Source: Amoebophrya sp. A120 (taxonomy: Eukaryota; Protista; Dinoflagellata). Taken from it: a stretch of 64,000 bases of DNA. Location of the stretch: positions 10,345,489 to 10,409,488 of the forward strand of contig CAJINV010000003.1 of the NCBI GenBank assembly GCA_905178155.1, read 5' to 3'. Made by a program: the position numbers and the translations under genes. The notes beneath the pieces are model-generated. The model searched no databases. It saw only the letters and a list, made by a program, of their open reading frames with translations, and was not told where the DNA came from. Below are positions 323 through 50,533 of the stretch, piece after piece; the stretch's first letter is position 1, and every line of letters begins with the position of its first letter.

Positions 323-2944
323 TATGAGATGGACTGAGCGATTCAAACCCAAGCGATTCAAAAATTTTTTTTCAACTAAAACGCATCCCATCAACTGCCC
401 CCAAAATGTCCCCGGATTCGGCGTCGCGCGGAGCAGTTTCAGGTAGTGGCGGAGATGTCGGCACCGGGTTATGGAAGTAAAATATGTGGGCCGACGTCAA
501 CTTGAGCTTTCTACATCGGCTGTTCTTGGAGGTCATTTTTTTCCTCCAAATACAGATACGCAGCTGCCTTCTGCGAAGTGAATCTTCGTCGTGTGTCTGG
601 AAAGGTAAGGCGGCAGCAGAAATCGCTTCCGTATTTGGGGCGCTCCCGACTCTTCAACAAAAAGGGGGTCACCTGCGTGGTGTGGTTTTTGCTGCTTTTT
701 GTAATCACCCAAACGACGCGCAAAAGACTACGAAAGAGGCCAACGTGGCCGGTCTCAACTTGAGGCAGCTACTTGCCATTTTATAAAGGCTGCAAAGCAG
801 GGGACGAAGTCAGCGCGTGCGCATGAAGCCATGAAATGAGCGGAAAAACAAGACGCAACAATGCCGCCAAGTTGGGTACCGGGAAAAACGCGCGTCAGCC
901 ATGTGAAGGGCAACCCAGGGCCCATTCCAAAACCCAAGCGGGCCGACCGCCGGGCTTGGCGGCTTCTGGTGCGCCGTGGTGGGAATGCCTTTGGGCCTGC
1001 CCACGTAAAGGTTGTAAACCTGCGGCAGCCTCGACCAGGTCCACGGAGGCCGCGCGGGCTACTATGCCAACAAAAAAAGCAACAAACGCAGCGCACAGGT
1101 GCATTGTTTCCTCGGTGTAGCTGCAAAGACGGGCGGGCCAAGGCGCCGAGGGTTTGGGGCGCAGGCGCCCCACGGATGCTATGGCACTGGGGGGCCTGGC
1201 CCCTTGGCAAGTCCGCCAGCGGGCCAATGCCGTGGGCTACTTGGTGGACTGACGTCGCCGGGGCGCGGGTACCAGCTTCGCGACAGGGGCGGCTTTGGGG
1301 GGAGTCGCGAGGGCGGTTGGGTGTTGTTGTGGGCCCCGTCTGGCACGAGAAAGGGCGCCGGCGGAGCCAGTCGCGCAGCGAGAGGCTTCCTGGGGGCAGG
1401 CGTTCCCGGAGCTGATGGCGGGGCTTTGCAAGCCTTGTAGCGGCGCTCGGAAGGGGCGTGGCGGGCATGGTGCCGAAGGTGCGGAGGTCACTATTGTGAA
1501 AGCGGGCGCCATAGCGTCGCGATTCGTGATTTTCCATTGTTCTTGAGCATACCGCCGCGCTTGGCCGATTTCGGCTCCAAAAGGGGGTCAATCCGGGACC
1601 TCCTTTTTGGCCTCCCCCGAGAGCCGGAACCACGACGGTATGCTGGATCTCGATAGAGGTCCTTTTTGGAGGGTTTCGGCGATTCAAAAGGACCTCATTT
1701 GAATCGCGACATTGCAAAACCGTTGCATTTGTATTTCCCCGACTACAATCCATTCAAAAAAAGGCGCGATCTGTTCTTTTTTTCCAGGTTTGTGACGGAT
1801 ACGCGGCGGCACTCGGCTGATACACGGCGCCACAGCTCAAGAAATAAAGGCTGCGCCCCACCCTGTTGTCCGAAAAGATTTGGCGGCCAGAAGAAAAGGG
1901 CCACGAACCAAAGGGCCGCCAACCAGTGGCGAGAGTCTTCTATTGGTGGGGAGAAGTGCAAATGCTGCCCGACCGATCACAGGCACCCACAGAAGAGGCG
2001 CCGAGGCTGCCGTGGTGTGGGCCACGGCGGAGATATATCGCGCCGCAAGCCCGGCTCGGGCGGCATGTAGTTCAGCAGCGCACCCGTAAAGGTGCCAAAG
2101 CCCCGCAGTGCCGACACGGGGCCCCAGGATAGCCTGGCGGCGCAGGCGTCCTATGCTTTTTTTCGATGGCACTGCGCCAGGGTTGGCACTGCGGCCGCGG
2201 CGCGCCGTGTTTTTCCCTCTCCCGGTGACAAGGCTCATAGCCCACACTAGAATCGGCTACGCCACCTTCTTTCGCAAGGCGTTTTGCCGAACTTTTGTGT
2301 CCCACAAAACAGAAAAGCAGATGGCGAAAATGGCGCCGCATTATTTCGGGGCTGGGGCCCCCACTACACAACGGCGGGCATGTTTTTCGTCCCGCGGCTT
2401 TTGGCCCCTTCTTCCTTGTTGTATGTGCGCGAGAAAAACCGCGCAAGAGACAGCGCAACGTCGCTGATGGCAGAATAATGGGCCGTGCGTTGGCGCCAAT
2501 CTGGCTAGTTCCAGTAGGACCCGGCTCTGCTTTTTTAGGCGCATAGCTCGTCGGCTCTCCGCCGCCACTCACGCGAAGCCGCTGCGTTTGGCACCGATCG
2601 CGGCCACGCCTTGGGGCCAAATAGTGGCAGGCTTGGGCTTCGAGGGTATCCGCTGTGTGGCCTCCTCTGCTGCCCCTTGCTGCGAATTCTTCACGCTTAT
2701 GAATGCAGACACTCGCCTTTTTCCCGGTTTTGCTGCGTTCACGTACGCCTAAATAACGAAGTCAAGTTGAGATCGACCTAGCTTGTTCGTTTGATACTCT
2801 TCTGGGCGACGTTTCGGCGAACGCAAAAAACACCCAGAACACAGCCCATCCGTGCTGCTGTTCTTTTCAAGAATCAGGAAAAGCTTGGAACATGAAAAAA
2901 AATTTTTGAATCCGTTGATTTTGAATCGCTCAGTCCATCTCATA
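323..2944. mobile_element. 2.6-kb non-autonomous TIR element (TAT...ATA ends, 5-bp TSD TCAAA)
   Basis: About 52-bp imperfect TIR TATGAGATGGACTGAGCGATTCAAA...ATTCAAAAATTTTTTTTCA at 323-374 and its reverse complement at about 2893-2944; perfect TCAAA at 318-322 and 2945-2949; GC-rich interior with no recognisable transposase. Confidence 0.93.
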
Positions 2945-48600: not shown

Positions 48601-50533
48601 CAGACATTTAACGCAACGTGCGAACAGCTGCCGCCGTGGCGGGAAGATCATGGTTGCTGCAGACGTCGACCTTCAACAAGAAGTCTCACCCAAGCTGGCC
48701 GCAGGGGTTGTGGATATCAATAGTAGCAAGGGCGGCCCCTCGTCCTCCTCCTCGTGGTCAGGCGGAGCGACCTCGACTAGAGACCCGAGGCCAATAGACG
48801 GTATACGGAAGGTCGAAGCTGCCCGTCCCTCCGAACAAGAAGAGGACACAGCTTTCCGTAGAAGTCTATCTACGATGCGCAGGACGACAATGCCGACCAC
48901 GAACTCTTCCAGAGCGGCTTCGAAAGAGAAGACTGTGCCAGGAATACTCGGAGTTGCGGTTTTACCAGAATTATGCTCCACCAATGCCAATGCGAGAGCG
49001 AGTACGATTACGAGTGCTAGAAGAACAGATGCTACGACCCCTGCTGGAGCGCGCCCAAGTAGACCTTCAGGAAGCAAAACTGCATTAGCATCCATCTCAA
49101 GGCGGCGGAAAACGAAAACTTCCGCAGGCGATCCAGAAGCTAGCTGTAGTGCTGCTAGTACTGATGACACCGCGAACAATCAGAATCAACGCAATCGGCA
49201 TCGAAGTGACATTCCAAGTTCCATGGGTAGTGGCAGGCCCACGTCAGCCTCTGCAACTCGGAGCACCGTCTTACGACCTTCTCAAATGTTCAAGGTCGAG
49301 TTGCTTTCCCAACGTGTTGCTCCTTTTTTGCATGTTTGGGATGCAACATCCTTTTTGTTCTCGCGGATCGTGCTTCCGAGTAGATATTAGCTCGAGCAGG
49401 TCACGAACCCAATAAAAAGAGCCGAACGACGACCAAATTTGTTAGTCAGTGTTGAGGCTTCGCAGCACAGTAGCTATTCACTGTATCTGAGTCGGCTGGT
49501 GCAAAGCGCTGCTTTATCTCCTGGGCACTTCTAGACAAAACTGGCGGAAGTGCAGCCGGAAGGTCGAGTTATGTGATACATCTGCACGGAAAAGAAAGGC
49601 ATACCGAGGTGAGCCAGGGTAGCTGATGCCGTCATTGTCATTCACGGCCAAAAGAAAAATAAAAATAATTAAAATACTTTTGAGCTGCTTCACGTTAAGC
49701 ACCCCTGAGAAGGCCATACGTCTCCGACTTTCTCGACGGATTTTTGGCAGCCGACGACGACGACGAATTTTTGAACACGCGCTTGGACCAGTACCTCGCC
49801 GATACGCGACTGAGCACGGACAATCAAGCCATTCAGGCCAAGTCCTTCCTCGAAGACGACGTGGACCCCGCGCACGCGTTGAGCCTGCAGCGCGAGATTT
49901 TTGCAGGCGGCGATGTAGTTTTCGGAGGCGAGGTGATGTGCGAGCCTGCAGCGCCGTTATGGATGGAGCAGGAGCAAGGAGAAGGATGTCGTTCTTTCGA
50001 CGTAGCAGGATTAAAAGATATTGATACTCCTCCTTGTTTGGTCACTACCTTTAAGGGTTTTGACGCTCGGCATTTACCCGAAGTGGAAGACGCATTCGCT
50101 AGCATCAATGTCGCTCAAAAGAAGTACAGCGCGATCATGAGATCGAATCTCGCGAACGGCGCCCTTCGCGGTTCGCGGACGCAAGGAGGTAAGGAATTTC
50201 AGGACGACCAGGACGAGCACCCGAAATTTTTGAATTCCGGCCCTGTCTCGATTGACCGGTCTTGTGACGTTCAGCACCACCAGCAGCAGCTCCTGCAGAC
50301 GACGGTAAACACATCGCGGAACACAACAAGAAACCAATACCTCGCTGCCCCTGCGGCCAACGACGGTGGTGGAAAAAATGCAAACGGAACGTCGACCGGA
50401 GCACAGGCATATCCTGTAGTGTGTTCTCCTACGGCCGCGCATGCGTACGGTCAGAGCTGCAGCCCGGAACGAGCGGAGAACCTTCGTCTCGAAAATGAGC
50501 GCCTCTCCGAGCAGGTGAAGGAGCTGCAAGAGT
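42623..50533 (+). CDS. Kinesin motor-domain protein with long low-complexity insertions and tail; exons approx. 42623-43041, 44058-44539, 45334-46112, 46326-46560, 46786 to about 47670, about 47940-49271, 49724 to about 50533; 3' end not located
   Basis: [11 protein letters not shown]-loop [26 protein letters not shown]; switch [12 protein letters not shown]; switch [44 protein letters not shown]. Confidence 0.95.
43042..44052. mobile_element. 1-kb introner-like intron in the kinesin
   Basis: TAT...ATA ends; TSD GTCCT/CTCCT; in-frame [15 protein letters not shown] restores the kinesin FDxVxxxxxxQ spacing. Confidence 0.8.
44540..45328. mobile_element. Introner-like intron in the kinesin
   Basis: TAT...ATA ends; TSD GTGCA/ATGCA; in-frame [25 protein letters not shown]. 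Confidence 0.75.
44772..44824. repeat. Perfect palindrome with 26-bp arms and a 1-nt spacer
   Basis: GATAGGGCTTCTAAAGTAGCACGACG-A-CGTCGTGCTACTTTAGAAGCCCTATC. Confidence 0.97.
49272..49718. mobile_element. 447-bp introner in the kinesin tail (same family as 5029-5619)
   Basis: Ends TACGACCTTCTCAAATGTT and TGAGAAGGCCATA; perfect TSD CGTCT; in-frame [20 protein letters not shown]. Confidence 0.88.

Follow-up and report, generated by a model that had tools for sequence, protein, structure and literature searches.

How are introns without GT-AG ends cut out of a transcript, and at which bases? The question is raised by a stretch of 64,000 nucleotides on contig CAJINV010000003.1 of the dinoflagellate Amoebophrya sp. 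A120 (hereafter the window), whose genes are interrupted by elements with TAT...ATA ends, terminal inverted repeats (TIRs) and a 5-bp target-site duplication (TSD). The elements and their TAT ends have already been published and the system is not new; a preliminary description of the window had acknowledged as much for the general phenomenon. In the passages of Farhat 2021 (PMC7789003) that deal with them, A120 introners start with TAT and form 1,954 families, and 65% of introns are non-canonical; the introners have inverted repeats that open with TAT, after which come about seven variable positions and a run of A, and direct repeats of 3-5 nt. The same passages describe the repeat length as variable, the splice position as variable or unknown, and the boundaries as having no clear signature. 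The additions made here are a fixed splice register and a candidate branch base, neither of which was found in print.

Removal of the elements from transcripts

RNA evidence was taken from contigs of sequencing run X1 over positions 33000-52900, X1 being assigned to RNA by guess; it has GT-AG joints, which are absent from the DNA run X5. Annotated junctions come from the public proteins P0001, P0003 and P0004, which were mapped exactly onto the window, P0001 and P0003 each being 100% identical to a window open reading frame (ORF) and both named Amoebophrya sp. A120. In the first 29 kb, junctions are supported by annotation, homology or frame and not by reads. Among the 15 of 19 X1 contig joints listed, 8 were GT-AG and 7 non-canonical, and none of the 15 was present in X5; loose contig ends gave two further non-canonical joints and one further GT-AG joint. 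At 9/9 RNA-supported non-canonical joints a TA(T/C)...A(T/C)A element had been taken out together with 5 nt, and the protein mapping added 10 junctions of the same kind. Removal of the element plus 5 nt from mRNA, as originally proposed, was confirmed at all 19 checkable non-GT-AG junctions (9 RNA, 10 annotation). A GT-AG reading was impossible at each of them, the GT/GC...AG ends of U2-type introns being found at none, and the expectation that no mRNA junction falls at a nearby GT-AG site held; an AG end was possible at 5/19 and impossible at 14/19. In the genes examined, 21 introns were non-canonical (2 of these supported by neither RNA nor annotation) and 9 were GT-AG, in agreement with the claim that the elements supply most introns.

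The preliminary description had listed 15 coding insertions. Twelve were recovered at the named start, by RNA (39181, 39665, 41337 and 49272) or by annotated proteins (5029, 5684, 7699, 8662, 11598, 16927, 17405 and 43042), and that at 18022 by homology; the start at 44540 was off by 3 nt, and 28560 is a frame fit only. It had overlooked the elements at 11841, 29151, 33382, 34998, 40657 and 51387, plus the GT-AG element-intron 40938-41222. The five perfect 5-bp duplications that it reported (elements at 323, 16927, 22819, 41337 and 49272) were all present. The motif also exceeded its shuffled controls, but only modestly, because many copies are decayed: TAT...ATA pairs with a perfect TSD and at least 10/20 TIR matches numbered 12, where 10 local shuffles gave 0-10, and pairs with a TSD of at least 4 and a TIR of at least 12 numbered 19, where the shuffles gave 5-11.

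We then express the position of the cut as d, the offset of the intron's first base from the T of TAT, bases being traced where the repeat copies differ. The value d=-1 was allowed at 19/19 junctions (RNA-only 9/9), and the other offsets, d=-5, -4, -3, -2 and 0, at 8, 11, 13, 15 and 15 of 19. The lower limit, d>=-1, is set from RNA by 33382 and 39665 and from annotation by 11841 and 17405, and the upper limit, d<=-1, from RNA by 29151 and from annotation by 5684, 7699 and 44543; at 5684, cutting at TAT itself would create a stop codon. Seven of the 19 junctions are uninformative on register, and under uniformly random registers the chance that d=-1 fits all is 3e-4 (0.03 for the RNA-only junctions). 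The register is very probably fixed, as N-TAT...ATA-NNNN with cuts 1 base before TAT and 4 bases after ATA. A blind search over all combinations of a 5' dinucleotide and a 3' base returned T+2 A+3 / A-7 in 17/17 junctions, compared with at most 9/17 for the best motif in 200 random placements, and two junctions found after that search, hence out of sample, also obeyed the register. No particular base was required at the first intron position (T 7, A 6, G 5, C 1), and the terminal dinucleotides were of 12 kinds. Non-defining triplet positions were kept at 46/51, against 59/85 for the repeats (p=0.006). The rule further predicted an unannotated intron, 18021-21262, whose removal gave a homolog alignment free of gaps (177 vs 117 bits) and retained a conserved serine only if d>=-1. 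Applied to the GT-AG intron 40938-41222, d=-1 yields exactly its canonical ends. In Table S4 of Farhat 2021 (PMC7789003), 18/18 predominant non-canonical site pairs start with NT. A cut regenerating AG from ATA+G (offset -4) was rejected, only 11/19 junctions fitting it, and so, being out of frame, was the perfect-TSD pair 18156-21258 as an alternative to 18022-21258.

No paper with a fixed register was found in the literature on Amoebophrya and dinoflagellate introns, subscription papers lying outside this coverage. As described in the available passages of Farhat 2021, the A120 introners share with the elements of the window the organism, the TAT with variable bases and an A run, the organisation in families, removal without GT-AG ends and a direct repeat overlapping the boundaries, the 5 bp found here lying within the published 3-5 nt. 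The window elements depart from that description in having a TSD of 5 bp throughout and a fixed register; Figures 3 and S19-S25 of that paper may bear on the register claim.

Families of the elements and their relatives

A 20-base TIR pattern had 152 matching stretches among metagenome contigs and none in viral contigs; of the 152, the 80 listed are all on contigs JACKZZ01.... This second assembly is likely that of a relative, because families are common to both at roughly 70-90% identity; 16/27 window elements have a family match there at E<1e-3. Loci L001-L150 of the assembly, picked by the TIR of one family, contained 370 TAT...ATA elements in 581 kb, 236 of them with a perfect repeat, and represent a dense, younger burst of families also present in the window. 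For one family, 161 distinct right ends were found and 151 could be paired. A perfect 5-bp repeat flanked 106/151 of the paired copies, a repeat of at least 4/5 flanked 139/151, and a 6-bp repeat none (0/151); there was no target base preference at these copies. A scan without any prior on the termini gave TAT...ATA ends for 265/321 TIR segments with a 5-bp repeat. In 282 young elements, the motif TAT-[C/G]-nnn-[T/G][G/T][C]AAA was common to all 19 clusters, TAT stood at 98% of ends, and pairing of the two ends was 97-100% at positions 1-3, 36-61% at positions 4-7 and 76-96% at positions 8-20. Transposon origin, the 5-bp TSD and the multiplicity of families were supported by these data. The convergence of unrelated families, also suggested in the preliminary description, appears doubtful, the common subterminal motif pointing rather to descent.

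Under removal of the element plus 5 nt, 96/98 elements of the second assembly with confidently coding flanks keep the frame. One family occurs in genes in both orientations, 17:19 by a local model (strand caller 76/83 correct at 198 nt); an orientation bias, hinted at by TATG-first window copies, was rejected on this ratio and on the 68:65 of the A120 codon model. Apparent TGT...ACA elements with a 4-bp repeat in the second assembly were mostly, by inspection, internal AATT-flanked repeats, and a common insertion site at locus L133 and window position 41337 was dismissed as a coincidence. Neither a transposase nor an integrase was recognised by Pfam among 11 element ORFs (E<=1), and Rfam gave 0 matches.

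That no standard superfamily combines TAT ends with a 5-bp TSD had been overstated, A120 family fam38 having been noted with a 5-bp TSD and TA/TA termini. In the passages of Gozashti 2025 (PMC12130899) that mention it, fam38 is labelled Ginger, the text adding that typical Ginger termini are lacking; automated TSD calls in the other rows among 38 of 58 A120 rows are 2-6 or NA. The 5-bp/TA statement there concerns one family, unlike the many considered here, and those passages give no splice register. A search of bioRxiv 2020.10.14.339549 and PMC13149111 for Amoebophrya gave no match. According to the relevant parts of PMC10045372, PMC6839031 and PMC2836005, IS3EU/GingerRoot elements have TA...TA termini and a 6-bp TSD, with little target preference for GingerRoot, and Ginger2/TDD elements have a 4-5-bp TSD (5 bp for TDD-4/5) and TGT...ACA termini. 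The elements studied here share the TA...TA termini of the former but not its 6-bp TSD (0/151, against 106/151 at 5 bp), and the 5-bp TSD of the latter but not its termini, two window elements ending in ACA but starting with TAT.

Candidate mechanisms of excision

What could remove elements that duplicate 5 bp without target preference, lie in both orientations and leave with 5 nt in a single register? They are the known A120 introners, and the account we favour, at about even chances, is that they are excised at the fixed register by a spliceosome lacking U1. Such a spliceosome would read T+2/A+3 as donor, and the 3' cut would be set at a fixed 7 nt from the invariant A, with neither G at +1 nor an AG end being needed. 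The A at -7 would be the candidate branch nucleotide or a ruler, and the TIR stem may help to join the ends in place of U1. Mobilisation would be due to a DDE transposase of integrase-like type, from the Ginger/IS3EU neighbourhood, whose gene would lie elsewhere in the genome. Since both ends read TAT, an insertion in either orientation would splice out and leave the protein unchanged, and this silent splicing would account for the spread of the elements into coding sequence. In A120, 83/89 spliceosomal proteins and U2, U4, U5 and U6 have been reported, and U1 was not found. All nine GT-AG introns begin with GTA, and in 6/9 position -7 is an A (p about 0.05); the element-derived intron 40938-41222, with its GT-AG ends in the common register, also speaks for a spliceosome. 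Splicing is annotated for two introns whose ends do not pair (z +0.4 and -0.4), and the triplet variants TAC, ACA (twice), ATC and ATG (twice) are not compensatory. [quoted passage not shown] A wider version, possible but held only tentatively, is that one code, 5' N-T-A...A-N6 3', would serve both transposon and GT-AG introns: the U1-less spliceosome would branch at the terminal A of the transposon (-7), ligate by distance and ignore G+1 and AG-1, and every insertion of an unclassified TAT/5-bp-TSD lineage would be a silent intron.

Several observations weigh against a spliceosomal removal of this kind, or against the register on which it builds. The RNA-based upper bound on d is one contig end (29151), the remainder being amino-acid-level annotation. 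A codon-model register test on the second assembly gave no clear-cut outcome, the left being favoured at positions 1-4 by 11:8 and the right at position 5 by 8:3. The excess of A-7 in GT-AG introns is marginal at n=9, and a branch A lying in the TAT:ATA triplet, which is paired, would require the duplex to be unwound. In a Pfam analysis, 150 window ORFs (at least 110 aa) and 123 locus ORFs out of the 129 longest gave no match to a transposase or an integrase. Finally, strong end pairing (z<=-2) was found in 12/17 non-canonical and 0/9 canonical introns, the pattern expected of a hairpin mechanism; since pairing correlates with TSD identity (rho -0.55), it may be a mark of age.

This last observation leads to an alternative that we judge unlikely, though a serious one: the same transposons and register would be handled by a spliceosome-independent nuclease/ligase, which would read the TIR stem closed by TAT:ATA, cut 1 nt ahead of it and 4 nt behind it, and free circles. 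End pairing parts non-canonical from canonical introns (Mann-Whitney p=2e-4), with at least 5 expected end pairs in 11/11 short non-canonical introns and at most 3 in 7/7 short canonical ones; the sole element with GT-AG ends has no stem left, and the independence of orientation and the failure to find U1 in A120 point the same way. Excision of this kind has been proposed for the nonconventional introns of Euglena, where a comparable fixed-spacer code exists; they are given in the consulted parts of PMC12501133 and PMC11282704 as N3-CDG...CH'G-N5-6, with full-length circles reported. Fixed spacers outside a paired terminal triplet (1 and 4 nt here), direct repeats and a MITE-like origin are common to both; the Euglena triplets are CAG/CTG with spacers of 3 and 5-6 nt, in contrast to TAT/ATA with 1 and 4, and hybrid introns are rare there, whereas a GT-AG element lies in the common register here. 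However, two annotated junctions show no end pairing above shuffles, which also leaves the structure-guided excision first proposed for the window a conjecture. The triplet variants disrupt pairing without compensation, positions 4-7 pair at only 36-61% in young elements, and the match of the register to GT at +1/+2, and to GTA in 9/9 canonical introns, would be a coincidence if the machinery were a separate one.

It is improbable that there is no single register and that cuts fall at variable or nearest canonical-like dinucleotides in the direct repeat, as in Figure 3 of Farhat 2021. The annotated site counts are mixed in the Gozashti 2025 dataset (PMC12130899), in the part available, and the uninformative junctions would allow it; yet only offset -1 fits 19/19, at the probabilities given above, AG is excluded at 14/19, and mixed published sites would be expected from aligner ambiguity in direct repeats. 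Least probable by far is that the junctions are reverse-transcriptase template-switching artefacts at repeat-flanked hairpins, or are guided by repeat-repeat pairing. A hairpin with a direct repeat is a known recipe for false introns in complementary DNA, and the nature of X1 was guessed. Against this, exact junctions occur where TSD identity is 0-2 of 5 (7699, 39665, 44543, 18022), orthologs or homologs run contiguously across junctions, the kinesin, GCFC and GT47 frames require removal, and X5 lacks the joints.

Elements, host genes and consequences

The elements are collected in the table. Host genes, all on the + strand, are of G-patch/GCFC, exostosin GT47, unknown, clathrin-light-chain-like, WW and kinesin type. 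The G-patch/GCFC gene, likely that of a spliceosome-disassembly factor, has no intron other than non-canonical ones, and its own expression therefore needs unusual splicing; a related protein with 42% local identity is uninterrupted across at least 4/6 of its junctions.

Table. TAT...ATA-type elements of the window and the gene with which the list begins.
Feature	Positions	Strand	Intron	Remarks
G-patch + GCFC gene	4424..12194	+		TFIP11/Ntr1-like, named from domains; elements make up 6/6 introns
TAT..ATA element	323..2944	.		53-bp TIR, perfect 5-bp TSD; lies in none of the genes found; no transposase domain
Element	5029..5619	+	5028-5623	annotated protein P0001; ortholog contiguous
Element, ATC end	5684..5983	+	5683-5987	annotated protein
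Nested element, 109-122-bp family	5792..5913	.
Decayed element	7699..8048	+	7698-8052	TSD 1/5; annotated protein
2.9-kb element	8662..11519	+	8661-11523	annotated protein
Element	11598..11799	+	11597-11803	annotated protein
Element, ATG end	11841..12091	+	11840-12095	annotated protein
150-160-bp-family element	16927..17090	+	16926-17094	exostosin/GT47 gene; perfect TSD; annotated protein
Element, ATG end	17405..17728	+	17404-17732	annotated protein
3.2-kb decayed element	18022..21258	+	18021-21262	TSD 1/5; from register rule and homologs
109-bp element	22819..22927	.		perfect TSD
Element	28560..28970	+	28559-28974	frame fit only
4.1-kb element	29151..33290	+	29150-33294	RNA contig loose end
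Nested 2.8-kb element	29393..32201	.		40-bp TIR, TSD 4/5; no transposase domain
Element	33382..33693	+	33381-33697	RNA joint
Element	34998..35157	+	34997-35161	near 5' end of clathrin-light-chain-like gene; perfect TSD; RNA loose ends
Element, ACA end	39181..39496	+	39180-39500	RNA joint
Element	39665..39933	+	39664-39937	TSD 2/5; RNA joint
Element	40657..40885	+	40656-40889	RNA joint
TAC..ATA element	40939..41218	+	40938-41222	GT-AG intron; perfect TSD; end pairing lost
109-bp element	41337..41445	+	41336-41449	perfect TSD; 114-nt RNA joint
Element in kinesin gene	43042..44052	+	43041-44056	annotated; end pairing not above shuffles
Element	44543..45328	+	44542-45332	annotated, from second TAT
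Nested TAT..ATA element	44558..45033	.
TAC..ATA element	49272..49718	+	49271-49722	perfect TSD; RNA joint
TAT..ACA element	51387..52174	+	51386-52178	kinesin transcript 3' of stop codon; perfect TSD; RNA joint

In the region 16270-21500, the predicted protein P0004 (461 aa) runs into the 3.2-kb intron and stops there, and the GT47 gene resumes at 21263 with the conserved FCLVIRGD segment. A protein search with the gene at 27767, which bears on the element at 28560, gave no match within 150-480 aa. Another inverted repeat, of 48 bp (29778-31721), lies inside the nested 2.8-kb element, itself inside intron 29150-33294, making three nesting levels. DNA depth is raised at the 41337 element. At the tandem TAT of 44535-44546 the 4/5 repeat lies on the first TAT and the annotated junction at the second, with one codon extra; the donor at 44543 appears to be picked by the local motif, not by the repeat. 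Other features are a 1.2-kb element at 12553-13772 (TIR of 46 bp, ends GGCC-like), distinct from the TAT type and possibly Harbinger/Tourist-like; degenerate TTCTCGG/TTTCCGA tandem repeats at 1-220 and TTTAGG-like repeats near 55.3 kb (55256-55400), both possibly subtelomeric; and a palindromic repeat array of 17-bp period at 53900-54520, beside an assembly gap, a similar array occurring in locus L009.

For the roughly 40,000 non-canonical introns of A120, the fixed register puts one rule in place of variable, unknown borders. It gives a candidate branch nucleotide and permits genes to be re-annotated, as with the missed 3.2-kb intron recovered here. If removal is spliceosomal, A120 would offer a natural case of a spliceosome to which the first and last bases of the intron do not matter; and if the single code is true, the contacts with G+1 and AG-1, thought to be near universal, would be ignored in this organism.

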